From the NCBI GenBank assembly GCA_032718475.1, contig JAUCBJ010007727.1, positions 1,988 to 65,987 of the forward strand: a stretch of DNA of 64,000 bases. Reading direction: 5' to 3'. Positions 9,272 to 33,183 of the stretch are shown here, one piece after another. A program made the translations under genes and the position numbers. Below the pieces are notes generated by a model that did no database searches, had not been told where the DNA came from, and saw nothing but the letters and a program-made list of their open reading frames with translations. Position 1 is the first letter of the stretch. Each line of letters starts with the position of its first letter. This stretch comes from Nemertoderma westbladi (lineage: Eukaryota; Animalia; Xenacoelomorpha).

Positions 9272-10194
9272 TAGTCGAGTCAATCTAGCAAAAAACCCGT
9301 AAGAAATTCGCAATCAACCAAAACCAAATTTTTTAGGTTCTATATTATCTTGTTATTGCCCAAAAAAAGTCTATAAAAATATATGTTGCGTAACACATTA
9401 AATTTCATGCAAACATATGACCTATTTTTGCAATACCCAAAAATTGCTCTTTTTTGATAATTGAGCTATTTGTTTGCTTTATATTATAACAAGTTGCTTG
9501 GTAACTGCTCTCTGCTCAATAGAACAATTTCCTATTGTTAGTGATGTACAGCAGCTAGCTACTTTTTAGACTAACTTGCTACAACCATTTTAATATTATG
9601 TAGCATTTTTAACCTTCAGTTCTGTTTATAAAATAATTTGCAGGTACTTTCAAAATTAAAATATATTCTAATCTTTTATGATGGCTTTACAATTTTACAA
9701 TATGGGTAGTTGGTGTGATTTAGGAAAAAATTGTAAAGCCATCACAAAAGATTAGGATATCTTTTAAAGTACCTTCAAATTATTTTATAAACAGCACTGA
9801 ACGGTCAAAAAAGTCGCATTGCTAATACAAACCCATAAAAAGTGTTTAAAGAAAAATACTACATAATATTAAAGTGGTTGTAGTGATTTGTCTATAAAAA
9901 GTAGTTAGCTGCTGTACATCACTAGCAATAGGAAATAGTTCTATTGAGCAGTTACCAAGCAACTTGTGTTATAATTAAGCAAACAAATAGCTCCATTATC
10001 AGAAAGAGCCAATTTTTGGTATTGCAAAAATAGGTCATATGTTTGCATGAAATTTAATGTGTTCCGCAACATATTTTTTTATAGACTTTTATTTGGGCAA
10101 TAACAAGATAATATAGAACCTAAAAAATTTGGTTTTGGTTGATTGCGAATTTCTTATGGGTTGACCCCCTTTTTTGGCTAGATTGACTGGACTA
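9272..10194. mobile_element. Foldback MITE with ~400-bp TIRs, Academ-like ends
   Basis: Starts TAGTCGAGTCAATCTAGC and ends GCTAGATTGACTGGACTA. 3-bp TSD TAG at 9269-9271 and 10195-10197. Arms are reverse-complementary over most of the length. Confidence 0.85.
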
Positions 10195-12700: not shown

Positions 12701-13349
12701 TTCAATAATTTCCACATTAGAGTTTGCTGAAATGCTTTGGTATTTCGTAGTGCTACCTCCTTTAAAAACCGAGACCTTTTAATGAGCGTTGGGAATGGAC
12801 ATAAAGCTAAGCTGTTAATGGTGAGTTGCTAACACCAGAGAGTATGTTCTAGTAAGGTGGCTAAGGGATGCAACTGATCAAAGAATATATTTCGCAAGGG
12901 ATTTAATTACTTTGATCCTCACAGAGTGATGGCAACAAAGCATTTATCTTATAAGTAGCATATGGCTTGGTTTTGGTAGTTCGATACGTTATAACTATTC
13001 CCAACAACAACTTTGAAGTACCTTGGATTTCAGCAGCAAGACTTTCTAAAATGTAATAACTTGTGTCCAGGGCAGTCCACAATGCGCAATAATGCGTCCA
13101 CATTCAGCGTTACTGAAACACCAGGACTAAAACCCCTATGATTTGATTTTGATCAAATTACAAAAAACCAGACGGGGACAGTATATTTTGATCCATTTCT
13201 CTATACGAGGTAGGAAATGAGAGATTTACGAGAATTATATTGTATTTTATGATAAAATGAACATCCTGCGAACAAGAAATGAGTAACCAAACCACTAAAC
13301 TAATTAACTTATAATTTGTATTCTTCCTTAATTAGAAGCTTCTATATAA

Positions 13350-15430
13350 CTACTACTACTACTGTACTACTAGGTCGAGCGAACTCGGACAGTGGAAATG
13401 AGATCCTTCCAGGCTTCCCTGTTCCCCATAGTTGTCGCAATTTCGTTTCTCCCAAGTTCAGTATCCCTTTCAAGTTGATCTATATATGTTATGGCTGGTC
13501 GTCCACGACTACGCTTTCCATGAGTTGGTTGCCAGAGAAGTTGATCTGGTATGACCTCGTCTTTACTTCGCCAGCAGTGCTCACTGAATCTTAATCTGCG
13601 TTCATGGAGGGTGGTTGATACAGGTGGTATTGTACCATAAAGCTCGGCGTTTGTCATGTGTTGTCTCTAGCTGATATTTAGGGCTGCCCTTAGTAGTCTT
13701 GTGTAGCAACCATCAATTCGTTGTTCAAGTGATTTAGTCAGTGTCCAGGTCTCACCCCCGTATAAAAATACACTTTCCAATGTGGCTCGAAAGAACTTAG
13801 TCTTCAGGTGCCTGGAGAGATCTGATTTCCAGATGGTATCCATTTTTGATAGAGCTATCCATCCAAGCCTTTGCTTTCCTAACTTCTATGTCCTTTTTGC
13901 TACTCTCTATCCATGATCCAAGGTACTGGAAGTCGTCGACCTTCCTTAGTTGATTATTCTAAATTGTTGTCAAGTTTCCATCAACATTAAAGGTCATGAA
14001 TTCGGTCTTGGTAGCATTTATATGCAATCCCACCTCCTTAGCAGCCCTCTCCACTTTATTTAGTAGAAGTTGTGCATCTGCTAGTGTATTAGAGAGCAAG
14101 TCGATGTCATCCGCAAAGTCGGTGTCTGTGACTGTAGTTGCCGGATATCTACTACTTCTGCGTTCTTGACGTGTGAATCCCAGATCTTCACCCTTTGTGG
14201 CCGTCCTCATTGCGCAATCCAGCACAATTACAAATAGTAATGGTGCTAATGTGTCATCTTGCAGTACGCCAGCCAGGATTGAGAAAAACTCAGTTTCACC
14301 ATCTGGTGAGAGTACCTGCGCTTCTGTGTCACAATATAACAATCCAATGCCAGCAACAATTACTTCTGGTATTCCATAAGCTCTTAGGATTTCAAGCATT
14401 TTACCTCTATTGATGGAGTCGAATGCCTTCTTGAAGTCCACAAAAGTCATGACTGCTGGGAGATTCTTTGACTTAATTCCTTCAATCAGTCTCCGTAGTG
14501 CAAGTATCTGAGCTATTGATGACCTATTTGGTCGAAATCCGTTTTGGTTCTTACGCAGTAGTTTCTCTATGTGAGGCCTAATCCTATATAGAATCATTTT
14601 ATTGTATATTTTGGCAGCTACCACAAGCAGACAGATCCCACGATAGTTAGTTGGTATACCGAGGTCTCCTTTCTTGGGGAGAGGCTTTAGTTGACCTTTA
14701 GTTCAAATTGGTGGTGGCTTAACCCCTTTTAACATCCGGTTGCAAACATTCAATAATGGTCTGTTTAGCACTCCTGTTTTCCATACCTCCGCTGGGATTT
14801 CATCTAATCCACTCGCATTATTATTGGACATGCTTTTAATGCTTCTTTGGAGTTCGGCAGGTGTGAAGTCCCCTGTTTCTATAAGTAGTGTCTTGTCATA
14901 TATTTTCCTTGTAGGGCTGACCTCGATGTTTGGTGGCTGCCCAAGCAAGTTGCTGAAGTGATTTTTCCACTTCCCAACACGTTCTTCAGGACTATCGGCT
15001 TAGAGGCGCCCCTTTGCACAACTTTTCCGACCAGATACCACATTTACAGTTTGCCAGGTTAGTCTTGATTGTTGCTGTATGTGAGCAGTTGTAATTGCTT
15101 CAATTTTATCCTGTATGTACTTTCCTGGCTGATGTTGTAGGCCAATTTAAGATCGTCCTTAGCTTTCTCAACCTTGTTAATGATTTCGGTTGTTGGTTAT
15201 TCGGATTTTACTTTGTAGGCTATCTTAAGATCTTCTCTCTTACAAGTAACCTCGGAGTTTTGCCATGGCACATACTGTTTTCGTTTGGGTTTCTGGGGGA
15301 TATGCCTCTTAGCTGATTCCTTGTGGGCTTTTATTATATTCTGGTATATTGAATCGGTAGAATGGTCTTCATCTTCATCCATTGACTGAAGTGCTTCAAA
15401 GCGGCTTTGAACTTCTACTGTGCAAGCATC
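13350..15430 (-). mobile_element. Degenerate 5'-truncated RTE-clade LINE (~2.1 kb)
   Basis: Frameshifted RT pieces: ASGLDEIPAEVWK, QNGFRPNRS, FVDFKKAFDSI, GVLQDDTLAP, DFADDI. (CTA)n tail at 13350-13372. Confidence 0.93.
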
Positions 15431-16171
15431 CTACAGTGAAATGTTAATCTACAGTGACTAGGGTGACTACATATACAGAAATGTTACTCTGCCGAAAACA
15501 ATAAACTAAAGTCAATAGAACAGGTTACTCAGATGTTATTTAACTGGGATGAATTTTTATTGCGTCGAGATTATATCCTATATATGCAATTAATTGCAGT
15601 TACTGTAACAACTGCACGGTAAATGATCTTACACTTACCCTACTACAATGGCTATCATTATTGGAGAATTCGCCACCAGCGGTGGCGAATTCATTTTTTC
15701 CGCTCCATTTGCTATAGAGTTGGATCATCCTTAGTCCTGTTTAATTACTTAATAATTTATACAATCTATGAATGTTAAACACATATAAAATACAAATCAT
15801 TGTTTTGTATTAATAAAATCCACTACCTCAGGATAATAAACGTAGCAGTGCAAATAATAATTAGAAGTACAACCATGAATTAAATATTAATTATTAATGA
15901 ATTTGCATGAAATGGAATCCAATTACCAACAACGTAACACGGCAGTTTATTGCAGTCGTTTACGAGTGCAATCTTCCATGTACCAGCTGAATTCGCACAT
16001 CAGTATATTTATTGTTCGTATAAATCTGGATTTTTATGTTGTTACCACTAAAGAGATAACAGCAGCCCAATGGCTACATTCTCACACCAGGAGATCTCGT
16101 ATCTTTATGGCGTAGTAGTTAGTGAAACTTTGGTGTGCAAACAAATTATTTGCATTGAAAAATATTTCATA

Positions 16172-16296
16172 CCTTTAGTAAACAGAGTGGAAGGGTTTAA
16201 TGTGGAAGATCACCCATGGTGGTGAAGAGGCATTCCTTTAGTAAACAGAGTGGAGGGGTTTAATGTGGAAGATCACCCATGGTGGTGAACAGGCAT
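16172..16296. repeat. 63-bp satellite, left remnant (~2 units)
   Basis: Same unit as 33184-36370, interrupted at GGCAT by the LTR element. Confidence 0.9.
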
Positions 16297-18180
16297 TATT
16301 GGAAGAGACGGTAACAATACCTGCAATATCCTACTGTAAAGTTTGTAAATCAAATCATAAATCCGACCTTCTCACCAAAACAGTAAACTCTAAGTAAGCG
16401 AATATATTGCAGTATCGATCTCTTATAACCGGTGAGGCAGAAAACAGTCTACGAGCAGACAAACTTCGATAAAACAAAATCCCGCGCAGCGAATCCTAAA
16501 ATCAGGCTGACTCACTGACGGACTAAGGGGCTCGTATACTTTGCCGCGGTGTGATTTATATGGTTTGGGCAAAGGGACGCTAGCTAGGTACAGAGGCAGA
16601 TATTTGGAGATGTCTAACTAGCGGGCAAAGCACAGTACGGACAAAGTTAATTTTATATATTTCGAGGTGTAAATAATTTCTAACGCGCGTGTGTTAATTC
16701 TGAATGGTCAAAACAGTTTTGCTCCTTCACATATATAATTACTGGGTACGGTGTGCATTTTACGAATATTCTAATTTTGTAACTTGTAGGTCCAATACTC
16801 ACGAATGATAAGGTTCCTTCCCCTCTTGCGTATTTCCAGGACTCAAATTCAGGCATAAGGTTAATACTACGCCCAGAATTCGGCAATTTTAGGTACCAGG
16901 TCCCTGATACTAAGAAGAGATGTGTTAGTTTACTACTGTAGGCGTACAGGTACTAATAGCTATCCTAGCTCCTATCTAGAATTTTAGTCACCCAGGTAGT
17001 CCGGGTAACTTCCTATTAGGGCGTTGGCGGGGACACGGTAGATGTTAGTATATCCCTGATAGCCTCAATTTATTTGCGCCTAGTGTAAACTGCCCTACCG
17101 CCCGAACGGTACAATCCCAATTCAGGTGAAAACACAGCAACCCCCCTAGCCTACAAGTTCTGATGTAATGGACACCGTTGTACGGCAAATAGTCGCACAC
17201 ACACCTGTACTTAGCAAGAGTTAAGCGTACAGTTTGCTGCACCCTAACCAATGTGTATGCCTTGTACCGGTGTGCCTACGTCCTATCTGCGTACTAGTAT
17301 CTCTGCTCTCTCTCCCTCCCCCCGTAGGAATGTGAAGGTCTACTGTGGGTTTTCCTGAATCAAGACAGTACAGTCCCTATGATGTAATTTTAGGCTTGCA
17401 GCGTGTCACTACGTCTACCTTTTGATCTTTTGGTCTTACACTTAGGTAGCAAGGATCGAACGCTGTCTAACCTTTCAGGCGATGGGCGAATAACTCCAAA
17501 TGGTATTGCGGGTTGTCTCTCGTCTACATTCCCGTGATGTTCCCGTTCATTGCTGCGGCCCGATCTCTAGCCGGCCATCCTGTCCCTGAGTTTGTTCACC
17601 GTAGTGAATCCATAGTAAAACAGATAGAAAAGCTGAGAGAATATTCTGACTTTATTACAGAAGATACAATACAATGTAATCTGAGAATAAACTAAGCACG
17701 GAATAAACAAATATCAGATAACTGAATAACTGAGAGAATAATAACTAATGAACAAATCGCACCCTTTTATAGCCAATTTGTGCCGCAATCAATCGAGAAA
17801 ATTCTCGATTGTTCTATGGGTTCTAACAAGGTTTTAAAGATAGCTATTGGTCCAGCTAATATATAACTTGCACGACATTGGTTACAATCAAATAACTACA
17901 GCCTCATTGGTACAGACAAATGCAATTAATTTGTAGCGGTTAATTTAAATGAGTTGAAATTCTGCACAAAAAATAATTCGCACTTACTAGGATTCGAACT
18001 CGATACCTACTACACATATAATTTCCAACGCTCTACCAACTGAGCTACTGAACCACTTGACCGATAGATGTACAAATGATAGAACCAATACGAATGAGAA
18101 CTCAAAGCAATCTTTACAAAGTTAATTCGAATAAAATAAAATTTTGAAAATCCACGGCATTTAGGGAATATAATTCTATA
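16297..18180 (-). repeat. 3' LTR (1884 bp)
   Basis: Direct repeat of 31300-33183 at offset 15003. One mismatch noticed (16320 C vs 31323 A). AATAAA on minus strand at 17069-17074. Confidence 0.97.
17968..18054 (-). ncRNA. tRNA-derived Pol III cassette in U3 of the 3' LTR (not a functional tRNA)
   Basis: GGTTCAG-TAGCTCAGTTGGTAGAGC (A box with intact D arm), GAGTTCGAATCC (B box), T6 run. Acceptor, anticodon and T stems do not pair. Confidence 0.7.
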
Positions 18181-18664
18181 CCGCTCCATGAAAACAGGAT
18201 ATTATCGTGCATAAAATATACGGTTTTCACCAATAATCAATCAAACTATAGAATACTTAGGGCGTACTTACATATTTACAATTAAATTTCAAACGATACT
18301 TCCTTTCTACGTAATGATTCGATACAAAAATAATTACAAATTCAAACTTTACGTATTTAAGGCTTTACTAAGTAAGTACAATATAAATCTAAATTAAATT
18401 CACCAATATAAATCTATTGCATCTCAGATATTGCATAAATTCAAACAATTACAAATACAAATAAATGAAAACAATAAGAAAGGCTCGCGAGTCTTCCATC
18501 TACTATTGCATCCCAAATATTGCATAAATTCAAGTAATTACAAATACTTTCGTACCTAAATGTAGATTGCATAAGTTTGGAATAATTACAAATATGAGTC
18601 TTTCTGAGCACAAAATTTTCTATCTATAAAACTTTCTATTTCACTGTAAATACAAATACTGCTT

Positions 18665-19000
18665 ATAAAATATAAATTGCATAATATTCGGAACAATATA
18701 AATTGCATAAGTTCGGAATAATATAAATTGCATAAGTTCGGAATAATATAAATTGCATAAGATCGGAATAATCACAAGTATAAAATATAAATTCTTACAA
18801 ATATAAGTCTTACTAAATATAGATATAAACTGCATAAGTTTAGAATAATATAAACTCCTTTGCATCTTCAAATATGAAACATAAATCTTTCAAATATAAG
18901 TTCCTTCTAAATATAAACTCTCTAAATTTCATAAATTCGGAACAATACAAATTGCATAAGTTCGGAATAATATAAATTGCATAAGTTCGGAATAAACACA
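18665..19000. repeat. Degenerate 25-bp tandem repeats in the element 3' UTR
   Basis: Unit TATAAATTGCATAAGTTCGGAATAA, about 4 tandem copies at 18670-18770 and further copies to 18995. Confidence 0.85.
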
Positions 19001-19077
19001 AATATAAATATAAATTCAAATAAATCACAAATCATAAGAAAGGCCCACGAGTCTTCCGTCCACCCTTGCCCTCCCCT

Positions 19078-20592
19078 TTATCGCTTAGTGGATCGAGCCC
19101 TGCCGCGTCCTCGAAAACTGCGCACAGGTGACTTTGCTCGCGATATGGGACTAATGGGGCGAGTCACTGATTTACTTGGGACGTTGAGGGACGGTGCGAC
19201 TATTTCCTCGCAAATTCGTCTGTTTGGCATCCCAAAACCTCGACCGATTCCTCGTGACCGATCAGTCGTCACTACAGTTGGTAGAACGTCTGGGAACGCG
19301 CGAGAAGTGGACGACGCAGACCCAAGAGTAGCTTGCGCCCCCTGTTGATCAGCTGGTGTATGTCCCGATCCTCCTACCGGTTCTCTTGGAAGTGATACCG
19401 TATCCCGAGTAACTCGAATAGTCGGCTCAACTCCCTTGCGTTCTTCTACATTAATAATTTTCTTCAATTGTTGGCCCACCTTCTGGACCCGTATGATCCT
19501 ACCCTGCCCGTCCTCCCGAGGGTGACGTGCAGACGGCGCAACCGGAGTGGCTGGTATATTCGTCGCCTCTAGGACCTCTTCTTCCTCGAATACGCTCGCT
19601 CGTATACGTTTGTGGTAAAACGCGGCTCGGTACGCCCATGCGACGGTTAACCAAGCTCCCTTGTTCCGCTTTTCAGTTCGGAAACGATCGAATTCACCAT
19701 ACGTAATCCGATTAACGACTTTCTGAAAATTCCACGTGTTTTTGTTATCCGGGTGAATTTGTAACAGATACTCGCGCACCACTCGGAATCCGCTGTCGTG
19801 GGGCAAAATATCGACAACCTCGATAAGTTCGTCATATTGGGGCATAGCGGAGATATATCCTTCTGACATCATCGTCTGAGGATTTACCGCCCAAAATCCA
19901 AGATGCGCTCTCATCGGAAACCGTCTTCTCTGTGCTGATACATGTTCGTCGGCTAAATCTTCCCACTCATCAAATAACTTCCTCACGAGTTTTACAGATT
20001 CGTGTTCATAAGGTATGTCTCTTAGTTGGCATTCAGATGCTCGATGTCCCTTTATATTGCAGTAAGTACATTGAGCCATAAATCTCCAGCAAGTATAAAA
20101 GGTATGAGACCCTTGATCCCCACACCATCCACAGATTAGCTGAGTCGTAGTAATGTGCTTTCCACTGCACTTTGCCATATGATGTCCAGCGACGCCACAT
20201 TTACTACACATCGTATTGGCAGGGTACCACACTCGTTCGTATATAAGATCTCCAATCGGTCGAGCGCTTCCTCCCACACTATAATCGTAATCATCTGGGT
20301 CTATGGGTTGGTAGGTTTCTGAAGGTTGTATACAAACTATAGCATCTGTTGCTTCAAGTTGTCGAATCTCCGTCTGAGATTTCTTCGGGAGGTTCCTTTC
20401 TATCTCAAGAAGTTCCTCTAAAGGATCGTCGGCGATCGTAGTAGTTACTTCGAATTCATCACCAAGGTGACCGATAGGCGCGCGCGTCTGCCGTGATTCA
20501 TCCGTAATTTCCACGATACGTTCTCCTTCATAGGGTAACAATGTAAACATAGATGGTCTTTCGATAAGAGATCCCGCACAGCGAAGATACAC
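19078..20592 (-). CDS. Extra ORF downstream of pol with three CCHC zinc knuckles (504 aa)
   Basis: CSKCGVAGHHMAKC, CGWCGDQGSHTFYTC, CTYCNIKGHRASEC. Acidic N-terminus and Arg/Ser/Gly-rich C-terminus. The ORF track starts at GTG; true start uncertain. Confidence 0.75.
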   Translation of the reverse strand: MYLRCAGSLIERPSMFTLLPYEGERIVEITDESRQTRAPIGHLGDEFEVTTTIADDPLEELLEIERNLPKKSQTEIRQLEATDAIVCIQPSETYQPIDPDDYDYSVGGSARPIGDLIYERVWYPANTMCSKCGVAGHHMAKCSGKHITTTQLICGWCGDQGSHTFYTCWRFMAQCTYCNIKGHRASECQLRDIPYEHESVKLVRKLFDEWEDLADEHVSAQRRRFPMRAHLGFWAVNPQTMMSEGYISAMPQYDELIEVVDILPHDSGFRVVREYLLQIHPDNKNTWNFQKVVNRITYGEFDRFRTEKRNKGAWLTVAWAYRAAFYHKRIRASVFEEEEVLEATNIPATPVAPSARHPREDGQGRIIRVQKVGQQLKKIINVEERKGVEPTIRVTRDTVSLPREPVGGSGHTPADQQGAQATLGSASSTSRAFPDVLPTVVTTDRSRGIGRGFGMPNRRICEEIVAPSLNVPSKSVTRPISPISRAKSPVRSFRGRGRARSTKR

Positions 20593-20888
20593 GTCTCGAA
20601 ATATGCTAAATCCTGCTCGAGTAAAGGCATTGCTGTCTTTGCGAGCTTCGCTGTACTTTCTGATAATTCCTTTATACCAAATATAGTGTAGTCTTTTGCT
20701 CCAAATCGTTCGAATGAAGCTGCCGCCTCCTCTTGGATATCATATCCCCATCTCGGCTCTCCTTGTATCCCTTTCTCCATAATTAGAGGTGTAGTTACAT
20801 AATCATTACTACTAGAGGGAATACAACAGAGTTTGTGGTTAGTTGTGAGGAGACGTGAGAGTTTCGTCTGCCTTTTGGGCTTCGACAA
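20445..20888 (-). CDS. Small ORF overlapping the 5' end of the zinc-knuckle ORF
   Basis: 147-codon open frame with internal ATG (MEKGIQGEPRW) and an HLCLHC motif. May be the frameshifted N-terminus of the next ORF. Confidence 0.4.
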   Translation of the reverse strand: MSKPKRQTKLSRLLTTNHKLCCIPSSSNDYVTTPLIMEKGIQGEPRWGYDIQEEAAASFERFGAKDYTIFGIKELSESTAKLAKTAMPLLEQDLAYFETCIFAVRDLLSKDHLCLHCYPMKENVSWKLRMNHGRRARLSVTLVMNSK

Positions 20889-21442
20889 CGCTCTAACCTC
20901 CTACCCATAGCCTAAGATCTAGGGTTTCTTTAATGACACGCTGCTTCTTATCTAAAATTTTTTGCCGAAATAAAAACGAATTTGGGCTAAACTGGCCGTG
21001 AGTCTAAAATACTCACTTTTTGATCCCAAACTATTATCAGAAAATAAGCAGTCAAGAATTAGTAATAAATATAGGGGAGTCTATTTATTGACGTAACTTA
21101 TTGAAACAAGACCGTGTAAAATTTAATTAAAAATTTTAAGAAAGGCTCGCAAGTCTTCCTCTCTTATTTCTCTAATTTTAAGTTCCACCCGACTGTACCC
21201 TGAAATCTATTCACTGGAGAAAATTTTAAAAATTTTCAAATCCAAATGGATTGTCTAAAATTTCGAAAATGTCTCAATATTGTGAGTTCCAAGTAGAATT
21301 CCATTTCTTATACCTACAAATCCCGCTCCTATGTGACACATAAGGGTACCACCCTCAATGTTCACATATAAAGACAATGGAATTCTACCGCTGTCCTTAC
21401 TACGGTGTACAGGTACGTGGAAATCTATTTTTAAACTCCTAA

Positions 21443-24400
21443 TTATTTACTAGTATTAGGTGGAGATTTGTAGTCTCCAGACTCGTTACGAGTCTCTTCA
21501 AGGAGTACGAGACGTTGAGTCGGTCTGTCTACTGTACGACCGTCAATTGTCCGTACCGTCACAGTTCTTGTCGCTCCATCCATAGATGGATGTGTGGCTA
21601 AAATGACACCTGTTATCCAGAAGCGTCTTTTTAGATTCACTTCTGCCAACAGCACGTGATCTCCCGGCTTTAATGCGCGGGTGTTATTATACCAAGTTGT
21701 TCTGGCAGAAATAGAGGGCAAATAATGGTTTTGCCATATTTCCCAGAATTTGTTAGCCAGTAGTTGCGTGATTTTCCACGCTTTTCTACCGTAGCTGTCG
21801 CTTTCTATTGGAATAGAAATCGGCGTTAATGTCGTCGGTGCCTGCATAAGCAGGTGTGCCGGTGTTAAAGCAAACTGGGATTGTTTGTCATCGGGTACTA
21901 ATACTATTGGTCTAGTATTTAGTATTGCCTCGATTTCAACAAACAATGTTGTCAGTTGGTCGTCTGTTAATATGTGGTTTACTGGAATGACCTTTGCCAT
22001 GGCTGTCTTTATAGATCTAATCAGTCTCTCCCAGACTCCGCCTCTCCAAGGACTATCTGGAGGATTAAACTTCCAAACAATCTTGTGAGGTTGTAGTTCG
22101 TTCGAGATTTGATCATGATCTAATTTCTTAAAGGCTCTAGCAATCTCATTCCGAGCACCAACGAAGTTTGTCCCTTGGTCTGAGTACAAGCATTTTACTA
22201 GTCCGCGTCTAGCGATAAATCGCCGCAGTGCTAGTATAAACGCGTTGGTGGAAAGATCCATCACACGTTCAATGTGAACTGCCCTACTGGACATACATGT
22301 GAAAATCAGTCCCCAGCGTTTTACTAGTATACGTCCACGTTTCGTATGTATGGGACCAAAGCAATCAATTCCAGTCTCTGTAAAAGGTGGTCTGAATGCT
22401 TGAAGTCGTGCTTGTGGTAGTTCACTCATTTCTTGGGTACCTATTCTAGAATGTACCTTTTTACAAATAATACACGTACGTGTCACTGAACTTAATGCTT
22501 TACTGGGTCTAATTAATACAAATCTAGTACGTAAGTAGGAAAGACAGTGGTGTCTTCCAGCGTGTTTCAGATGTAGATGTGCGTCCAGTATCATTGCACG
22601 TTGTAGTTCGTGGTGTTGCGGTATTATTATTGGGTACCTAAAGTTCGTGTTAAAGTCAATGTTTTGAAGCCGAGATTTATGACAAATTAAGCCATTATAA
22701 ATAATCGGACTCCAACTCAGTATTGGTGACGACTTGATTGGTTGACCTTGATTTATAGATGTGAATTCGCGCGCGAAATATCGCAGTTGGTAATGGCGAA
22801 TTAATTTAATCTCACACCTGTCAATCTCAGCCAATGTAAGTCGACGTGTAAAGTAACGTTTGCCTTTAACGTATTGTACAAAACGTACAATCCACGCTAG
22901 TTTTCGGCAAGCGTTCGACCAAGAATCTGTTAGGTTTACAATACGGTCGACATGAGTATTTGTGACGTCATCAGGTAAGTCAATGGAGAACTTGGAAGGT
23001 TTTGATTTACTAGAAGGGCCCACGGGTCCGCCGGTAGGTATTCCCTTGTTGACTGTTGATCCGTCCGGGTCTACAAGTAATTTGTCCTTCTTTGTCTTCT
23101 TACCTTGATTGTCAGTACTTTGTAAGTCGATCGTCAATGGTGGTTTGAACTCTATGGGATCAGTGGGTTTCGGTAAACTTATTTTTCTGCCGACATTAAT
23201 CCCAGGTCTCACCATAGGTTGCAAGTTCGGTATGTCTCTTGAGCGCAGAGTAACACCTGTATTTACATTAGCGTAGGTACTACCCACATCTGTAATACAT
23301 GAGGTTTCACCGTGCTTATGGTTGCTCAAGTGTGTCAAAATTGGTAGTTTGTCAATACAAGGCCGCTCCAATAGGGAAACTGCGGCTTTATCGTTAGTCA
23401 ATACATTACTAGTGTCTAGTCGACTGTCTAGTAATGTGTCTGGCGATACGTCTGGTAACGTATCTGGTTGTTTGTCAATAGAAGGCCGCTCCAATAGGGA
23501 AACTGCGGCTTTACTGTTTGTCAGTGTGTTACTAGCGTCTGGTGGAACATTTTGTGATATGTCTGGCAAAATGTCTGGTTGGCTGTCTAGTAACATGTCT
23601 GGTTGACCGTCTGGTAACGTGTCTGGTTGACCGTCTGGCGATATGTCTGGTGTAGAAAGGCTCGCAAGTCTTCCTCTCTTGACCTTTGAAGTTATATCTT
23701 TCCATTTCGCCTTCGGTTTTTTCTTGAGTTTCGCCGCCGTCGTCTTTTTCTTTGTCTTCCCCTTTTTTGGTTTCTTGATTTCGGCGTCCTTGGGAATGGT
23801 GTTGGACTTGTTGTCGTATAACGGAGGCCAATCTTGTGTCGATTTCTGCAAGAATTGGGGTCCGTGTTGCCAAAATTCTTTGTTCTCCGGTTTACAGAAT
23901 TCCTCAGGCATCATTCCTCGCGACGCAATATCAGCTGGGTTTTGTGGTCCGGGACAATGTCGCCAATCCCCTTTTATTGAACGGTCTAGAATTTCCGCGC
24001 GACGGTTAGCAACGAATGTCTTGAATTCGAGTGTGTCGTTGTTTATGTAAAATAAAACCAACGTCGCGTCAGTCCAATAAAATATCTGTAAACTCGACTG
24101 TAGTTCTGTCTGTATGAGGTTCACGATGGTGGTTGACAGGGTTGCGGCTTGTAGCTCGGCTCGTGGTGTCGTCATATACTTAGTAGGCATGGTCTTAGCC
24201 TTAGAAGTAATGAGCGAAACATCGAACTCGTCTGATTCTACTTGTCTGCGCAAGTACGCTGCCACACCAAAACCGTTGTCACTGGCGTCAGAAAAGCAGT
24301 GTAGTTCCAAGTTGTCAGGAAATGTACTTTGTAATGGAAAGTAAACCCTGGGTATGAAATAATCCTCTAGCGAAGATAATTCCGCCTCCCAGGTCTTCCA

Positions 24401-25893
24401 TAAGTCCACTTGGTCTGATGAGATCGGCTCGTCCCATGTTAGTCCATCCTTCCATATACTGCGCATATAAATGCGGGCTTGCAGTATCACTGGACTGATG
24501 AATCCTAACGGATCGAACAATCGGCTCAATTTTGACAAGCATGATCTCTTGGTCAGTGTGTTCTCTTGACTGTCCAGTCTCACTTTCACTCGAAAGTTGT
24601 CTGTGTTTGGGTCCCAAAAGAGCCCCAACACCTTAGTCGTCGGTAGTGGTTCGAACTCTAGGTCTATGTCACCACCTCCACGCTCAGTAGTTCCGAATGA
24701 GTCTACTAATTCGGCACTGTTTGAGGCGAATTTGGTGAGGTTAAAACCTCCGCCCGCCAAGCAGTCCCGTAATTGATGTGCTACTGTTGTAGCACGTTCT
24801 ACTGTGTCGCAACTCTGTAATCCGTCATCAACGTAAAAGTCACGCTCCACAATTCTAATTATCTCTGGGTCATATAGATGTTTCTGATCTCTAGCGGCCT
24901 GCTTTAGGGCGTACATCGTACAATTTGGGCTGTCTCTGGCACCGAAAACGCGAACTTGCATTTGGTAAGTCGCCGGTGGTAGACTTAAATCTCCTTCCGG
25001 GTACCAGAGGAACCGCAAACTGTCTCTGTCTCGCTCTAACGCCTTTACTTGGTGAAACATCGCTTCAACGTCACAAGTAAAAGCTACTTGACGCTGACGG
25101 AAGCGCATAATCACCCCCATAAGATAATTATTCATGTTCGGTCCATCCATCAACTCACTATTGAGGGACATTCCCTCAAACAGAGCCGCACAGTCATTGA
25201 CTACACGTACTTTGTCTGGTTTGTCGGGGTGTCTCACGTAGTGATGTGGCAAGTAATACGTTTGGTCGGTCACTCGCTCCGGGTTAGTCATTCGGATAGC
25301 GTATCCCTTTGTCAAATACGTCTCCATCTGAGTGTTATACTGCAGATGGGCTTTCTCGTCTTTTAATAGACGTTGTCGGATTGAGTGTAGACGTCTTAAA
25401 GCCAGTGGATAGTTGTTTATAAGTTTAGGACTTTGGCTACGCCATAACATCCCTACCTCATAATGTCCGTCTTTCGTCTGGTGGATAGTATCTTCCATGA
25501 TCTTCAGAGATTGTTTCTCCTGTTCCGACATACAAGGTTCATAGCTACCAGGTTCAGCTGTATCTTGTTCTAACCACCTGATAGTCTTCTCCGTTAATTC
25601 TTTGTCCAAGGCGGCTTGTTCCAACTGATGATTTCTCAACGCGTCATCATCGATATCGACGGGCACTGTTGAGGTTATTGGGGTAGGTAGACTCGCAAGC
25701 CTATCATCTGTCGTCGATGGAATCTCTAGCTGACTCGTCTTCCCCCCAAGTTCTAAACTCACCTTGTGGGTTAGCTGCTCCTTGTGACTTATCATACTAG
25801 TTACACGTCTGTCATGTTTTGTCGACTGTAGTGTAGTATGGTTCACGTCGTGTGAAAAGGAATGAATTGAATTTGTAGTTAATAAACTACATG
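21443..25893 (-). CDS. pol: BEL/Pao Pol: RT, RNase H, integrase, C-terminal DUF5641-like domain
   Basis: YYLPHH, DVEAMFHQV, FYVDD; LHCFSDAS, PRAELQAA, NPADIASRG; H..H..CxxC, GIDCFGP, SDQGTNF, GGVWERL. The frame stays open upstream of the 25846 ORF call up to the insertion boundary. Confidence 0.96.
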
Positions 25894-26096
25894 CAGGGCC
25901 GGATTAACCAGTAGGCTAATAAGGCTGAAGCCTTAGGGCCATTGAAAAAAGCGGTCACTTTCCTACAAAAATGTTGAATTGTAATGAGTTGAATGTAATG
26001 AGAGTTAATAGGAAGCCTATAAAATAGTCTGTAAAAGGGGCACTTTACATCATTAGTTTCTTAGTATATGGACCCGTCCGCGTCCGTCCATGTAGT
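25894..26096. mobile_element. One-ended hAT-MITE remnant interrupting gag-pol
   Basis: Begins CAGGGCCGGATTAAC (hAT-like TIR) and is flanked by CTACATG at 25887-25893 and 26097-26103. Removing 210 bp restores one continuous frame. Confidence 0.75.
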
Positions 26097-29000
26097 CTAC
26101 ATGTACTCTGTACATCGTCTTCCTCGTCACTTACGTCTAGTGTGCGCACAGGCGCTCGAGTATACCACCCTATCGGCGTTCTGCAGGCGTATGCGTTTCC
26201 CGCTACAACTGCCGATGGTCTGGTTTCCCACACCTGATGTAGGTTGAATTGGTCCGTCCCGATCAGCATTGCTACCGATCTATAATTGACAGGACATTCT
26301 GGTACACCAAGGTGTCTGAAATACTTACGGTCCTCTAGAGATTGTTCCGGCACTGGACCTAGTAGGTTACTAAAGTCCTTCGTGGCCGCAAAGGTTAGAT
26401 CTCTAAAAGGTAACAAAGACCTCTCCCTCTCGCTGTGCTGCGATTTCGGAAGAAGAGAGTCTAAGTCCAACTTAACTCGTGTCACTGGTATTGCACGCTG
26501 TCCGTGCATACTACTTACTGTATAACTGACGTGCTTACCTTGTTTTAGATCCGTCACGACGTCAGCTATCTTTTCGTCCACGTAGCTATGAGATGAGGCT
26601 GAATCTAGAATCGCATAGATCCTCTTGCTCCCCTTTGTGCCAGTAACCTTAATCGGGATTACACTGAATCCCTTCAGTTGATCAGTGGTCAGAAGCGCGA
26701 TCGACGGTTGTTCGTCTCCATTAGAATATTCGTCGTCGTCTTCTGATTCTTCGTCCGACGATCCGGATTGTTCTGAGAAGCAATCCTCAATATGGGTCAC
26801 GAAGGTTGGAGTCGTTTTTGATTCTCGTTTTCTATAGGCCGCATCACATCTCGCTGCTGCTTCCGGGTGTTCCCTGGCGAAGCGTTTCGTCGGCGTGTGG
26901 CTGTCTGTGTGGAGCAGACCGTCGTGGTTGCGTCCACAGGATGGACAAGTGTCAGTATTTGGGCAATCCTTACGCACGTGTCCGTGTCGCGTACACCGCC
27001 AACAAGAGTCCAGTGGCCGTATTTGCAGCCGTCGTTCTTCCGAGTTCAACTCGCGAAATTGTCGACAACCTCGTAACTTGTGACCGATATACCGCTTACC
27101 TAGATGCTCGCAGTATTGGCAGCCACTGAAGTCGGTACCAAGTTGCTGTCTCGTTTGTTTTGTCCCAATGGGCGCAGATACCCTACCTCCGTCCGAGAAT
27201 TGTCGTGATTCCGTCGGTGTGGTGTAAGTGGCCGTCTTAGTGGATGTTGTCTGGGGTTTTTGTCGGTTGGAGGATGGCAATGTGATCCCTTCTGCCACGA
27301 TGTGCTGGTCGGTGTAGTTAGATCGAGTTTCTACTACCGCCTCCCTGGATATTAAAAGGTACACATCTTCTAATTTTAAGAATCCTCCCCGCTCTTCTCG
27401 CTGGTATTCGACCTTCCTCCACTCCCGACGAAGTCGATGGTGGAGTCGTCCTATGATCTTTAATAGGACTGTAGGGGTATTCCCGTAATCAAGTTGTCCA
27501 ATTGATCTTAAGGTAGTGATAGCGTTCTTGATCTCGTCAGCTAGTTTTAGTAAGTCGACGGGTTTAGTGATAGCCCCTCCCTTACAGAGTTCCTCTATTA
27601 CTGACCTGGCCATGCTCACTGTACCTCCGTATATCGAAGTTAAACGATCGTACGCTAGTTCGAAAGCGTCCGGTACACCGACGAAAGTCTCCGCCAAACG
27701 TTTAGGTTCTCCTGACAACGTTTGAAGCAGGTAATTGAACTTCTCCCGTGATGTAAAGGCGCACACGGCGATCTGGGATTCGATATAGTCTACGAAGGTA
27801 TGCCAGTGTTTTGAGCTACCGGAAAACTTCGGTGGTTGTTGTACCGGCAATCCTTGTCTGGCTGCGAATTTCGCTATCTCCTCGGCAACGTCCAGAGTTT
27901 CGCGTCCTTGGTTGGTAGTCTGGTTGATGTTCTCCCTTCTTGGCGCTTTTCCCTGATACGATGTGTGTTTTGAAGGTACCGGTCTTTGTGGTTCCTTCGG
28001 GTGTCTATTGTGTTCGAATTCGGAATTTCTCGAACTGTCGGTGTAACCTTCCTCCAGACGTTCCTCGATCTGAGCCAACTTATTGACAACTGGTCGCAGG
28101 ATGTCGGCGAACTGTTGTGTACTAATTGCGTCCGTTGGTTGTAACGCCTTCTGTGTTGGTGTATTCTGTGGAGGATTGTCTGCAAAGGAGTTGTCTGAAC
28201 GCTCGCGTTTGTATTCATCGGCCGCCCCTGTTCTAAATACCTCGCGTTTCGGGTAATCCGATTCGCTCGAAGTACTACTATCATCCGGATATGGTGGTCG
28301 ACGTGCTCGCGTTCGTTGCGTCGTACGAATTCTAACGGTTCGTTTCGGAACATCGTCCACTGATCTCCGTTGTTCGGTAGGCTCACAAGTCTTCCTCGAA
28401 GTCGTAGATTGCGATGTAAATTGGTTGAATGGTCGCGTCTCCACTGTTCTCCGTTGTTCGGTAGGCTCACAAGTCTTCCTCGAAGTCGTAGATTGCGATG
28501 TAAATTGGTTGAATGGTCGCGTCTCCACTGTTCTCCATTGTTCGGTAGGCTCACAAGTCTTCCTCGAAGTCGTAGATTGCGATGTAAATTGGTTGAATGG
28601 TCGCGTCTCCACTGTTCTCCGTTGTTCGGTAGGCTCACAAGTCTTCCTCGAAGTCGTAGATTGCGATGTAAACTGAATCGGTGGTCGGACGACCGCGTTT
28701 GAATCCAAAGGCCTTGTAGGCCGAAATGTCATTGGGTATTCGTAGTGCGTAACGGGTTTAGGTGTCAAAGGTGGACTCACCTGTTTTGTCGTCAGTAGTG
28801 CAGGTCCGACTAATAAACTACTACGATCTGTAATCGGTGGGTTACTTACCTTGACTTTCGGAATAGGCGACGACGTTGCTCTTGGCGGTGTAAACTTGTC
28901 CGGAATAACAAACCTGTGCTCCGTCACACCATGGATAGGAGAGATATCGCTGCTACCAGCAATCGAAACAGGTTCCTTAGTCGTAACCGGTGCAAACATA

Positions 29001-30487
29001 TGAGTCACCTGTGGGAATCGTTGACACAAGTCCTTTACTAATTGTCGTTCCCGTCCGGGTGCTCCCACGCTTCCTTCTTTCTTTCGTTCCTGAATTTGGC
29101 GATGTCTTACCTCTATCTGGTCCAAGTCATGTCCGTCTCGAGATCTCATTGATCGATCGCGGGCCCTTTGATCCAGATCTTCCTCAGCGTTCGCTAATTC
29201 TCTCGCCTTCTTCTCAAGTTCGAAATGAAGTTTAGCTGTCTTCTCTCGTTGTTCCGTTTGTCGTTGTTGCGCCTCAAATTCTGCTTGTCGTATAGCGGAT
29301 TGAGCCTTTATTTGCCGTGTTTTCATTTCGGCCCGTGCTTCCGAAACTAACCTGTCTCGTTCTAATTCCGCCGCTGCCGCTGCCGCTGCCGCTTGTCGCT
29401 CTGACTCTGCCGCTTGTCGCTCTGACTCGGCCGCTGCCGCTGCCGCTTGTCGCTCTGACTCTGCCGCTGCCGCTGCCGCTTGTCGGGCAATGTCTACCTC
29501 TAACCTTTCTACTTCAGCTGCTTCTAATTCAGCTTGTTCCTGTAGATGAGAGATTCTCGCTTTATTCGCAACGCGTAGCTTCTCTTCCTCTACTGCTGCC
29601 TGCATCACTAGAAGTTGAGCTTGTTCCTCCATTTCTCGTCGTTGTCGGTAGAATTCTTGCTGTTGTCGAGCAACTTCTGACGTAACCATACTTCCCTCGC
29701 CAATTTCGCTACGAATACTTACCAACGATTGATCCAATATTCCTGGTGCCGATTCGATTTGTGCGAGCGAAGTTTCCCTCGTAGCCTCCGGCACGGTTTC
29801 CCAATCTCCGACGTCCTCGCCGCACATGCGTAAGTGATCCGTCAGGTGTTTCAATTGTCCATCCAGTCGGTACAGTTCCTGTTCTTCTTCGGGTTGTAAT
29901 AATTCGTCCGAAACTGACTCACCTAACAACTGATCCGCTTGTTCCTGTTGTATCTGTCTAATCGTCGACTTAAACTGAATCAGTTTCTCTCTAGCGATCA
30001 TTAGTTTCTCGAGGATTCTAAGTTGAGCATCCATGTCCTGTCTCTGTCTAGCTAGATCTTGTAGACCAATTAGGTTATCGACGGACTTGTGTACTCTACT
30101 TTGTACTCTAACCTGGAGGGTGTAGAACTCGAATCGAGACATCGGAGCGGTCAACTCGTCTAATATGCGATGACCTTCTCCAATACTCCTGGTTATATGC
30201 GCCATATATCCTCCGACGCTTCTAACCACACTTTCTGTGCTTCCTGCTGAACTTACCATTTCCGTTTCCCTATATCTAGGTTGCGGAACAGTTAGAAAGT
30301 CCTCGGTCCTGCCGTCGCCTCGTACTACGGCATCCGGTACTCCCGTTGGATGTACTGGTGACGCACACGGTGTAGGTTCGGTAGGCTCGCGAGTCTTCCC
30401 CTGTTGTTCCTCCGCTGCTGACTTATCCGCGTCACACGAGTCATAGTCGGTAGGTGTATTCTTCGTATAGTCTTGTTTGTCACTCAT
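26045..30487 (-). CDS. gag: BEL/Pao Gag and aspartic protease
   Basis: DUF1759-like PKFSG...W..F...EKFNYL, BEL-type triple Cys/His cluster (CQYC..H..C, CWRC..H..C, CPSCGRNHDGLLH), protease AILDSAS, TPIGW. The stop at 26045 lies inside the insertion. Confidence 0.95.
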   Translation of the reverse strand: MSDKQDYTKNTPTDYDSCDADKSAAEEQQGKTREPTEPTPCASPVHPTGVPDAVVRGDGRTEDFLTVPQPRYRETEMVSSAGSTESVVRSVGGYMAHITRSIGEGHRILDELTAPMSRFEFYTLQVRVQSRVHKSVDNLIGLQDLARQRQDMDAQLRILEKLMIAREKLIQFKSTIRQIQQEQADQLLGESVSDELLQPEEEQELYRLDGQLKHLTDHLRMCGEDVGDWETVPEATRETSLAQIESAPGILDQSLVSIRSEIGEGSMVTSEVARQQQEFYRQRREMEEQAQLLVMQAAVEEEKLRVANKARISHLQEQAELEAAEVERLEVDIARQAAAAAAESERQAAAAAAESERQAAESERQAAAAAAAAELERDRLVSEARAEMKTRQIKAQSAIRQAEFEAQQRQTEQREKTAKLHFELEKKARELANAEEDLDQRARDRSMRSRDGHDLDQIEVRHRQIQERKKEGSVGAPGRERQLVKDLCQRFPQVTHMFAPVTTKEPVSIAGSSDISPIHGVTEHRFVIPDKFTPPRATSSPIPKVKVSNPPITDRSSLLVGPALLTTKQVSPPLTPKPVTHYEYPMTFRPTRPLDSNAVVRPPIQFTSQSTTSRKTCEPTEQRRTVETRPFNQFTSQSTTSRKTCEPTEQWRTVETRPFNQFTSQSTTSRKTCEPTEQRRTVETRPFNQFTSQSTTSRKTCEPTEQRRSVDDVPKRTVRIRTTQRTRARRPPYPDDSSTSSESDYPKREVFRTGAADEYKRERSDNSFADNPPQNTPTQKALQPTDAISTQQFADILRPVVNKLAQIEERLEEGYTDSSRNSEFEHNRHPKEPQRPVPSKHTSYQGKAPRRENINQTTNQGRETLDVAEEIAKFAARQGLPVQQPPKFSGSSKHWHTFVDYIESQIAVCAFTSREKFNYLLQTLSGEPKRLAETFVGVPDAFELAYDRLTSIYGGTVSMARSVIEELCKGGAITKPVDLLKLADEIKNAITTLRSIGQLDYGNTPTVLLKIIGRLHHRLRREWRKVEYQREERGGFLKLEDVYLLISREAVVETRSNYTDQHIVAEGITLPSSNRQKPQTTSTKTATYTTPTESRQFSDGGRVSAPIGTKQTRQQLGTDFSGCQYCEHLGKRYIGHKLRGCRQFRELNSEERRLQIRPLDSCWRCTRHGHVRKDCPNTDTCPSCGRNHDGLLHTDSHTPTKRFAREHPEAAARCDAAYRKRESKTTPTFVTHIEDCFSEQSGSSDEESEDDDEYSNGDEQPSIALLTTDQLKGFSVIPIKVTGTKGSKRIYAILDSASSHSYVDEKIADVVTDLKQGKHVSYTVSSMHGQRAIPVTRVKLDLDSLLPKSQHSERERSLLPFRDLTFAATKDFSNLLGPVPEQSLEDRKYFRHLGVPECPVNYRSVAMLIGTDQFNLHQVWETRPSAVVAGNAYACRTPIGWYTRAPVRTLDVSDEEDDVQSTCRLHGRTRTGPYTKKLMM
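28358..28680 (-). repeat. 84-bp in-frame tandem repeat in gag (~3.7 copies)
   Basis: Encodes QFTSQSTTSRKTCEPTEQRRTVETRPFN repeats. Confidence 0.95.
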
Positions 30488-31288
30488 TTCGGTAGTTGTA
30501 AGTCAAGTAAAGTGAGTGTCAAAGTATCGGGTTTACCGTATTTATATCTAAACGGTACTAATTACAGTCTTATAAAATTAGCCTACCGGCCGATTTTATA
30601 GCAGATGGATAAAATTAGCCTAAACGGCCAATTTTACAGCAAATGAATGTCACGGAATAAGTATATAATAAAATTAGCCTAGCGGCCAATTTTATAACAA
30701 ATAAATCGGATAATGATATGCGTTATCAAAAGGTAAATTAAATACAATAATACGGACTAATTCAGCAATGAACAAAGAAATCATACGGAATGCATAAATA
30801 CTTGAGACAGTGGAACCCACAATAATTTTTAACTAATACGGTAATGCCTAACTTATTTATGCAACTTTTCGAACTCACCCACTCCAATAATTCTCCAGAA
30901 AAACAGATTCCCAGATACAAACCGAACGTGAACCTTTCCGTTTTTAACGTTGCGGACGAAACGCGATTTTCCCAACCAAAGTTGTTGAGTTATCTATCTC
31001 CCAAACTTGCTAAACACGGTCTTGCTCCCGTTACAGTCTAGAAATGAGTTCTGAATCCTGAAAAAACAAAAGAGTTAGGTTTTACTTTACGAAAATTTTG
31101 TACCGGTACAATATGGTATTTAAACCCTTTTTAAACACCGGTATTCAATTCCAAAAATATTTTACACGCGGTTCAAATCAAATTTTATTTCAAAATATTA
31201 GCACTTAGCTAATCAAATACAAAATTTTTACCTCAAAATACAAAATTTTCAAATAACTTTAGTCCTACCGAACCGTAGTTCAGTAAAA

Positions 31289-31299
31289 CACATTCCTAC
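31289..31299 (-). promoter_or_regulatory. Primer-binding-site position, non-tRNA type (GTAGGAATGTG)
   Basis: Directly abuts the 5' LTR, lacks TGG, and is the exact complement of minus-strand LTR sequence at 32327-32337. Confidence 0.65.
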
Positions 31300-32733
31300 T
31301 ATTGGAAGAGACGGTAACAATAACTGCAATATCCTACTGTAAAGTTTGTAAATCAAATCATAAATCCGACCTTCTCACCAAAACAGTAAACTCTAAGTAA
31401 GCGAATATATTGCAGTATCGATCTCTTATAACCGGTGAGGCAGAAAACAGTCTACGAGCAGACAAACTTCGATAAAACAAAATCCCGCGCAGCGAATCCT
31501 AAAATCAGGCTGACTCACTGACGGACTAAGGGGCTCGTATACTTTGCCGCGGTGTGATTTATATGGTTTGGGCAAAGGGACGCTAGCTAGGTACAGAGGC
31601 AGATATTTGGAGATGTCTAACTAGCGGGCAAAGCACAGTACGGACAAAGTTAATTTTATATATTTCGAGGTGTAAATAATTTCTAACGCGCGTGTGTTAA
31701 TTCTGAATGGTCAAAACAGTTTTGCTCCTTCACATATATAATTACTGGGTACGGTGTGCATTTTACGAATATTCTAATTTTGTAACTTGTAGGTCCAATA
31801 CTCACGAATGATAAGGTTCCTTCCCCTCTTGCGTATTTCCAGGACTCAAATTCAGGCATAAGGTTAATACTACGCCCAGAATTCGGCAATTTTAGGTACC
31901 AGGTCCCTGATACTAAGAAGAGATGTGTTAGTTTACTACTGTAGGCGTACAGGTACTAATAGCTATCCTAGCTCCTATCTAGAATTTTAGTCACCCAGGT
32001 AGTCCGGGTAACTTCCTATTAGGGCGTTGGCGGGGACACGGTAGATGTTAGTATATCCCTGATAGCCTCAATTTATTTGCGCCTAGTGTAAACTGCCCTA
32101 CCGCCCGAACGGTACAATCCCAATTCAGGTGAAAACACAGCAACCCCCCTAGCCTACAAGTTCTGATGTAATGGACACCGTTGTACGGCAAATAGTCGCA
32201 CACACACCTGTACTTAGCAAGAGTTAAGCGTACAGTTTGCTGCACCCTAACCAATGTGTATGCCTTGTACCGGTGTGCCTACGTCCTATCTGCGTACTAG
32301 TATCTCTGCTCTCTCTCCCTCCCCCCGTAGGAATGTGAAGGTCTACTGTGGGTTTTCCTGAATCAAGACAGTACAGTCCCTATGATGTAATTTTAGGCTT
32401 GCAGCGTGTCACTACGTCTACCTTTTGATCTTTTGGTCTTACACTTAGGTAGCAAGGATCGAACGCTGTCTAACCTTTCAGGCGATGGGCGAATAACTCC
32501 AAATGGTATTGCGGGTTGTCTCTCGTCTACATTCCCGTGATGTTCCCGTTCATTGCTGCGGCCCGATCTCTAGCCGGCCATCCTGTCCCTGAGTTTGTTC
32601 ACCGTAGTGAATCCATAGTAAAACAGATAGAAAAGCTGAGAGAATATTCTGACTTTATTACAGAAGATACAATACAATGTAATCTGAGAATAAACTAAGC
32701 ACGGAATAAACAAATATCAGATAACTGAATAAC

Positions 32734-32913
32734 TGAGAGAATAATAACTAATGAACAAATCGCACCCTTTTATAGCCAATTTGTGCCGCAATCAATCGAG
32801 AAAATTCTCGATTGTTCTATGGGTTCTAACAAGGTTTTAAAGATAGCTATTGGTCCAGCTAATATATAACTTGCACGACATTGGTTACAATCAAATAACT
32901 ACAGCCTCATTGG
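32734..32913 (-). promoter_or_regulatory. Putative LTR Pol II promoter
   Basis: Three CCAAT boxes (32909-13, 32880-84, 32849-53) spaced ~30 bp, TATAAAAG at 32774-32767, and Inr-like TTAGTT/TCAGTT at ~32749 and ~32734. Confidence 0.65.
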
Positions 32914-32970
32914 TACAGACAAATGCAATTAATTTGTAGCGGTTAATTTAAATGAGTTGAAATTCTGCAC

Positions 32971-33057
32971 AAAAAATAATTCGCACTTACTAGGATTCGA
33001 ACTCGATACCTACTACACATATAATTTCCAACGCTCTACCAACTGAGCTACTGAACC
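32971..33057 (-). ncRNA. tRNA-derived Pol III cassette in U3 of the 5' LTR
   Basis: Copy of 17968-18054. Confidence 0.7.
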
Positions 33058-33183
33058 ACTTGACCGATAGATGTACAAATGATAGAACCAATACGAATGA
33101 GAACTCAAAGCAATCTTTACAAAGTTAATTCGAATAAAATAAAATTTTGAAAATCCACGGCATTTAGGGAATATAATTCTATA

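Follow-up and report, generated by a model that had tools for sequence, protein, structure and literature searches.

The element and its surroundings

The two reading frames described here lie inside a BEL/Pao LTR retroelement of 16.9 kb, which runs on the minus strand from position 33183 to position 16297 of the window (the whole stretch of 64,000 nucleotides that was analysed). It is bounded by a 5' LTR (31300..33183, minus strand) and a 3' LTR (16297..18180, minus strand), each of 1,884 bp, which are 99.95% identical (one mismatch), and by a 5-bp target-site duplication (16292-16296 and 33184-33188) within a 63-bp satellite. Because the LTRs are near-identical and the target site is duplicated, the insertion must be considered very recent. 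The LTRs end in TA..TA instead of TG..CA, and their length exceeds the range of the family, for which the ICTV profile of the Belpaoviridae states a genome size of 4.2-10 kb and an LTR length of 0.2-1.2 kb, with gag and pol as genes and an env-like one in some cases (PMC8742986; PMC3118150, in its accessible part). The size of the whole element is outside this range as well, although the range is descriptive and sets no phylogenetic criterion. Units of the 63-bp satellite surround the element (16165-16296 and 33184 to about 36500), and a second, very homogeneous array of about 120 copies of a 45-bp unit extends from 55637 to about 61200. Pieces of a LINE-type element are found in several copies (about 13300-15000, 3100-4050 and 39250-40400, with an RT-like frame at 13959-14702), and nested inverted repeats at about 9290-10160 suggest a foldback or MITE-like DNA element.

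Membership in BEL/Pao is borne out by both major genes. The gag-protease frame (26045..30487, minus strand) matches Pfam DUF1759 (E=3e-11) and carries the BEL-type triple Cys-His box that ends in His (knuckles at residues 1123, 1162 and 1181), while the pol frame (21443..25903, minus strand), which codes for reverse transcriptase and RNase H as well as integrase, is of the Pao type with the order PR-RT-RH-IN and matches Peptidase_A17 (E=5e-42), DUF5641 (E=4e-20) and Integrase_H2C2. Among 7,985 candidates scored, 897 relatives were found at E<=1e-50. Identity to the nearest database polyproteins does not exceed 43% (those with names belong to sea urchins, fishes, molluscs and other animals), so that the element represents a divergent lineage. 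Pol is in the same frame as gag, yet four in-frame stops intervene in this copy (25904-26047), and all four sequencing runs compared contain another form of the junction. A consensus splice donor is seen at 26134, just upstream of these stops, and this copy's own changes in pol are mostly silent despite them. Two further peculiarities add to the unusual length of the element: RNase H and integrase are separated by a low-complexity insert, roughly 280 codons long (about 22950-23800), and gag contains four 84-bp repeats (28272-28687).

The primer-binding position (31289..31299, minus strand) comprises 11 nt with an exact complement inside each LTR (32327-32337 and 17324-17334), and the pairing continues into the LTR end. 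This pairing is a lead for self-priming, as in the self-priming retrotransposon Tf1, in place of the 18-nt tRNA primer-binding site taken as typical of BEL/Pao. A second strong acceptor-like site is present in the leader at 31058, between the primer position and the splice donor described below; splicing from a donor in the LTR to this candidate acceptor would remove the primer site.

Two overlapping frames downstream of pol

The sequence-only reading described two overlapping sense ORFs after pol and an AT-rich spacer of about 550 bp. Both are indeed on the minus strand, and between the stop codon of pol and the point where frame A opens, the spacer measures 542 bp (66% AT). ORF A comprises 151 codons from stop to stop (20445..20900, minus strand) and 111 aa from its first ATG (20445..20780), which has A at -3 and G at +4. 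ORF B comprises 553 codons from stop to stop (19078..20739, minus strand); the length of 504 aa proposed for it would require a GTG at 20592, whereas the first ATG, in a weak context at 20550, gives 490 aa. The upstream limit proposed for the pair, 20888, is a TTG, and since the only two indels listed among copies fall upstream of the ATG at 20780, the TTG extension of ORF A is not conserved.

In ORF B, an acidic region precedes the three CCHC zinc knuckles already recognized earlier (20029..20208, minus strand), which start at residues 178 (CX2CX4HX4C, 20208-20167), 203 (CX2CX5HX4C, 20133-20089) and 224 (CX2CX4HX4C, 20070-20029) and are separated by linkers of 11 and 6 residues. The Pfam zf-CCHC profile matches with E=0.003, short of the family cut-off. 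Two or more knuckles occurred in none of 20,000 protein shuffles, and the open frames of 1,000 DNA shuffles reached 212 codons at most, so that both the triplet and the length of ORF B are far beyond chance. After the knuckles comes a hydrophobic-rich, structured-looking domain of no known family, probably helical (19564..20022, minus strand), and the protein ends in a basic Arg/Ser/Gly tail (19081..19179, minus strand), of which the last 33 residues have a net charge of +11. The last 60 residues contain five RS/SR and seven RG/GR dipeptides, in keeping with the RS/RG-rich tail described before, the RS content being modest. In the AT-rich 3' untranslated region (18181..19077, minus strand), a 21-nt unit is present eight times and a 14-nt near-palindrome discussed below once, another lying at 19054. 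The AT-rich 21-nt units (18584-18994) occur nowhere else in the window, and the region shows length variants among copies.

Neither an envelope nor a copied gag

The position of the frames is that of env, and so is the splice pattern presented below, hence a very divergent env or a small fusogen has to be considered. The earlier statement that there is no signal peptide or transmembrane segment is borne out by the highest 19-residue hydropathy of ORF B, which is 0.78, and by the lack of a hydrophobic core after either ATG; neither an N-glycosylation sequon nor a furin-type site was found in ORF B, and its cysteines form the CCHC knuckles. An env identity was rejected on these grounds, and we regard a disguised envelope as extremely improbable. 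Roo F-type elements, Tas, Cer7 and the Chuviridae-like glycoproteins of mosquito elements belong to the same family and occupy the same slot, but their products are membrane glycoproteins (PMC8742986, and the available parts of PMC13524379 and PMC554778), while ORF B lacks membrane features.

Triplets of knuckles with a basic tail are also known in Gag and ORF1 proteins (PMC554778 and PMC6431247, both in part), and the ESM Atlas neighbours of ORF B are generic CCHC proteins only (0.75-0.87, under 0.9). ORF B could thus be a captured structural protein, a second gag or one of the LINE-ORF1 type, which would form or coat particles. Like the triple Cys-His box of BEL/Pao Gag (PMC554778, in part), it has three tandem knuckles, but in a separate gene with no Gag domain and with a different spacing and last ligand: all 45 triplets found among 120 BEL relatives end in His and have a first linker of 20-21 residues, as against Cys and 11 residues in ORF B. 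Comparison with the Gag of the element itself (best E=1.4) and with the 120 BEL polyproteins (best E=0.24) showed no similarity, for which reasons a copy of a BEL gag was rejected. Pfam returned no capsid, Gag, ORF1 or esterase family for ORF B, and the sequences of the structure library gave no capsid match either, a very remote capsid fold being conceivable since the structural models are of low confidence. The acidic region before the knuckles and the structured-looking domain after them likewise argue against a second structural protein, which we consider improbable.

Other comparisons gave no relative either. No homologue of ORF B was found among 7,998 scored candidates of 304-968 aa in a word-seeded search of the kind that misses distant relatives, nor of residues 165-395 among 27 candidates of 127-405 aa; word-seeded searches of metagenome contigs (with ORF B and integrase) and of viral contigs yielded no homologue, and a search of NCBIfam with the ORF product yielded no match. 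The domain after the knuckles has no Pfam match under E=0.2 and no match in the ESM Atlas, and single-sequence AlphaFold2 models are too low in confidence for use (pLDDT 34, and 41 for this domain). No exonuclease family was found in Pfam at E<=1 for the full protein or at E<=5 for its sub-regions. Sequence matches in the structure library are limited to single knuckles of 14-20 residues, with the nucleocapsid of RSV at E=0.005 and other retroviral nucleocapsids at E 0.05-0.6; the match to Air2 is insignificant (E=1.5). Air1/2-ZCCHC7 and CNBP are multi-knuckle RNA adaptors and SRSF7 is a splicing factor with a knuckle and an RS region. They resemble ORF B in their tandem CCHC knuckles and basic low-complexity tail, but ORF B has no RRM and few RS dipeptides, and its membership in these groups is unsupported. 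Provisionally, it may be classified as an orphan, with the proviso that word-seeded searches miss distant relatives.

Presence in other copies and purifying selection

Other copies of the element were studied as pooled contigs of sequencing runs, the stretch being present in five of the nine runs listed, from four studies. When divided into 30 bins, the whole element is covered in all bins by runs X1, X3 and X4 and in 29 by X5, and ORFs A and B are covered in all 30 bins by X1, X2 and X3 (X2 being from the same sample as X1) and in 24 by X5, so that every bin of the ORF region is covered in runs from three studies. Among the indels listed at a share of at least 3%, none falls inside either ATG frame, all being located upstream of the ATG at 20780. 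In three runs, the knuckles and the domain after them (19840-20350) are matched by contigs with a likeness of only about 80-83%, so that the accessory gene is older than the young subfamily.

The 40 best-supported of 124 differences in the ORF region were classified by their coding effect, with no codon model, and compared with the same base changes placed at random sites in 20,000 permutations. Of the 33 listed differences in the part covered by ORF B only (20444-19081), 27 are silent, where 9.5 would be expected, and none of the permutations reached 27; the bias is seen in the core (18 of 21 listed; 20444-19560) as well as in the tail (9 of 12 listed, against 3.5 expected; 19559-19081). Read in the two shifted frames, one and six of the same 33 differences are silent, and in the plus-strand frames 8, 25 and 0; the antisense frame with 25 shares its third positions with ORF B and is open there for 125 codons only. 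None of the 12 zinc ligands is changed by a listed difference, and three changes nearby are non-silent. The same test gave 10 of 16 silent differences for gag and 13 of 19 for pol, this control being based on 35 of 40 listed differences (of 1,015 in total), with the five outside gag and pol dropped. Judged by this count from pooled contigs and the best 40 of 124 differences, ORF B is under purifying selection, like gag and pol. At sites where this copy is in the minority, the changes are silent in five of seven cases in ORF B, four of five in pol and seven of ten in gag, so that selection acted on the branch of this copy as well.

These results bear on the possibility that the frames are a decayed passenger fragment without function, such as an inserted gag absent or disrupted in sister elements, which had been named as the finding that would overturn the accessory-gene reading. 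In this copy, ORFs A and B do not share a frame and four stops separate gag from pol; homologues are lacking. On the other hand, the region is present in all bins and in three studies, no listed indel disrupts the frames, a dedicated acceptor is used in a contig (see below), and the silent bias equals that of gag and pol in strength and is seen on the branch of this copy as well. For the family, decay is thus largely refuted, and we hold it to be very improbable. The ratio of summed contig depth over the ORFs to that over gag-pol is 1.0 in X1 and X3, and X4 shows a tenfold higher value; genes cannot be ranked by contig depth, however, and these figures are no evidence of expression.

A splice route from the leader to ORF A

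The splice donor (30873..30881, minus strand; intron start at 30878) is the first GTRAG past the primer site and lies upstream of the gag ATG. The acceptor (20812..20845, minus strand) combines a branch-like CTAAC, a pyrimidine tract and CTAG. Two of the 937 AGs of the internal region show this set of features, with a cut-off taken from this very site. Just past it there is an upstream ORF of three codons (20795..20806, minus strand). A spliced transcript had been proposed as a check, and a joint 30879>20811 is present in one contig of run X4, where 10,067 nt including gag-pol are skipped; the ends of the skipped segment, CT..AC on the plus strand, read GT..AG on the strand of the element. The depth of the joint in X4 is 211, as compared to 201 for the unjoined form at that place, and it is 0 in X1, X3 and X5. 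The joint comes from a single contig of a single run, with 30 letters on its short side, aligned at 80% likeness. Run X4 is labelled 'DNA?', and if it is DNA, the joint represents a reverse-transcribed copy of a spliced form; in either case, the exact use of donor and acceptor points to splicing. In this one contig of one run, the leader is joined to ORFs A and B in an env-like subgenomic RNA, with the layout of a retroviral env mRNA.

Taken with the selection and the comparisons above, these features make it very probable that the locus holds a real, selected and spliced accessory gene, neither a decayed gag nor an env. This much of the sequence-only reading stands, since a gene in the env slot is found family-wide, is under selection and has no env features, while the RNA binding and the choice of a role are matters that we infer.

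One product or two

The relation between the two frames is less clear-cut. Between 20780 and 20551, four of five listed differences are silent in frame A and none of the five in frame B, and codon usage favours frame A above about 20640, while from about 20510 downward frame B is the constrained one. On the spliced RNA, ORF A has the first ATG of strong context, and six ATGs precede the weak ATG of ORF B at 20550. Contigs of other copies leave the sequence of this copy near 20.63-20.65 kb and near 20.52-20.53 kb, so that the overlap zone is the variable part. Because frame A is constrained upstream and frame B downstream, the first strong ATG lies in A and the overlap varies, we somewhat favour a single product, with A and B as its two parts, that starts at ATG 20780, here or at least in related copies.

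Against a single product, the frames differ in this copy, no indel is listed in the overlap among close copies, and codon usage at 20634-20551 slightly favours A too; the lack of listed indels and this codon usage fit two separate proteins. Fusion of the frames in other copies, suggested earlier as a check, therefore has evidence on both sides, with no indel listed inside the frames but with contigs that diverge in the overlap zone. Alternatively, A and B may be joined by a second splice or by recoding; no canonical -1 slippery site or slippery heptamer was found in ORF A's ATG frame, and no second small intron inside A/B appears among the joints listed (15 of 60 for the whole element and five over the ORFs without X4).

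Possible functions of the accessory protein

CCHC knuckles bind mainly single-stranded nucleic acids, and from what is known of this family, the knuckles and tail of ORF B are likely to bind RNA. The element has a good donor ahead of gag and a textbook acceptor past pol, and it would still need to export its unspliced genomic RNA. The HIV factor Rev helps unspliced RNA to leave the nucleus. By analogy, we tentatively propose that the job of the protein is the control of spliced versus unspliced RNA, as for Rev or for CERV. A leader splice that skips gag-pol would make the mRNA of a third, non-envelope gene, translation would begin at ATG 20780 and run from frame A into frame B, and the product would bind the element's own unspliced RNA and promote its export or block its splicing. 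A feedback loop would result, in which a protein made only from the spliced form acts on the intron-retaining RNA of roughly 14 kb. The full mechanism, a Rev/CERV-like regulator of unspliced RNA, has in our estimate a probability of about 0.4.

CERV of the Cer1 element of C. elegans is a tested precedent for an export factor of retroelement RNA (PMC10309623, in its accessible part). Judged by description, ORF B shares with Rev and CERV its origin from a spliced RNA of the same element (in a single contig) and the putative combination of a basic stretch with a metal finger. According to the same part of PMC10309623, Cer1 belongs to the Ty3/gypsy superfamily, unlike the BEL/Pao element studied here; the first half of CERV is spliced from gag exons, whereas here the splice skips all of gag; CERV has one C4-type finger instead of three CCHC knuckles and a basic tail; and its export function has been demonstrated, while that of ORF B would follow by analogy. 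Against a Rev-like role, no homologue or usable fold links the protein to an export factor. Three loose matches to the pattern of a leucine-rich export signal are not convincing. There is no Rfam match at E<=0.5.

A 14-nt near-palindrome occurs in ten copies, in the internal region only (30396, 28644, 28560, 28476, 28392, 25702, 23671, 21156, 19054 and 18494), in two reading frames as well as in non-coding DNA, and was found in none of 200 shuffles, with a pattern fitted post hoc. Four of the copies belong to one tandem repeat, and the copies differ mostly at CpGs. It may be regarded as a candidate site for the ORF B protein or for another factor. Eight of the ten copies are in the intron and two are outside, unlike the Rev-response element. 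Reading it as an RNA hairpin was rejected, since the core pairs are improbable in eight of the ten copies. Conceivably, the element is 'complex', a member of a giant and probably self-priming BEL/Pao lineage whose orphan triple-knuckle regulator would read the ten palindromes and switch between spliced and unspliced RNA, in a Rev-like system of independent origin; we consider this combination unlikely.

The same motif suggests another role. Anti-silencing factors encoded by transposons are exemplified by the VANC proteins of the plant VANDAL transposons, and ORF B could be such a factor or a transcription factor that binds the DNA (or RNA) of the element at the ten near-palindromes and shields it from host silencing. 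Sites that are internal only and mostly unfolded as RNA fit a DNA site of a dimer, and the element is not depleted in CpG (observed/expected 1.0-1.46 in most internal parts, as opposed to 0.56 in a LINE remnant nearby). However, the pattern was fitted after the copies had been seen, the tandem repeat accounts for four of the ten, the preference of CCHC knuckles for single strands speaks against a DNA site, and there is no link between protein and motif, which Gag, integrase or a host factor could read as well. The CpG figures of the element would also agree with its being young, and depletion in the host flanks is only mild (0.76-0.93). A role in anti-silencing thus seems doubtful.

Finally, the protein might be a nucleocapsid-like chaperone or particle cofactor, made in excess from its own mRNA and folding or packaging the long genomic RNA or the structure of the self-primer. 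In the structure library, the knuckle region matches best, though weakly, the retroviral nucleocapsids mentioned above, the element apparently has no tRNA primer site and its LTR pairs with the primer position, and the genome is far longer than the usual 4.2-10 kb (PMC8742986). Those matches span single knuckles only, Gag already carries three knuckles, and the selected domain of 150 residues past the knuckles would be superfluous for chaperoning. Because the element has three knuckles in its own Gag, chaperoning of the primer is the weakest of the roles proposed by the sequence-only reading; in its wider form, the chaperone explanation is not likely either. Among these roles, we prefer the control of unspliced RNA.

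Relation to other third genes, and implications

Third genes other than env are in print for gypsy-type elements (PMC5408684, PMC6431247 and, for CERV, PMC10309623, each in part). In Juno, Vesta and TelKA, gypsy-like elements of bdelloid rotifers, pol is likewise followed by a third gene that is specific to the family and is described as being expressed, as a rule, through spliced messages. Their ORF3 products, however, are enzymes (DEDDy exonucleases and GDSL esterases), coiled-coil proteins or membrane proteins (PMC5408684, in part), and ORFs A and B have no such Pfam match. In BEL/Pao, the extra genes described in the available parts of PMC13524379 and PMC554778 are glycoproteins, and in the ICTV profile the genes given for the Belpaoviridae are limited to gag, pol and env-like ones, the replication of the family being described as poorly understood (PMC8742986). 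No BEL/Pao element with a knuckle-bearing third gene was found in the open literature, including PMC8220671, PMC11952523, PMC6238403 and the accessible part of PMC2774666, with subscription journals, Repbase, GyDB and supplements outside the scope of this search; the sequence files of PMC3118150 could contain such elements unremarked.

A selected and spliced third gene that is not env means that an accessory gene of the retroviral sort, whose protein belongs to no known family, has evolved in the Belpaoviridae too. The splice donor, the acceptor, the protein and the candidate sites are all defined. If the control of export or splicing proves true, this would be the second such case in a retrotransposon, beside CERV, and an independent answer to the problem that HIV solves with Rev.
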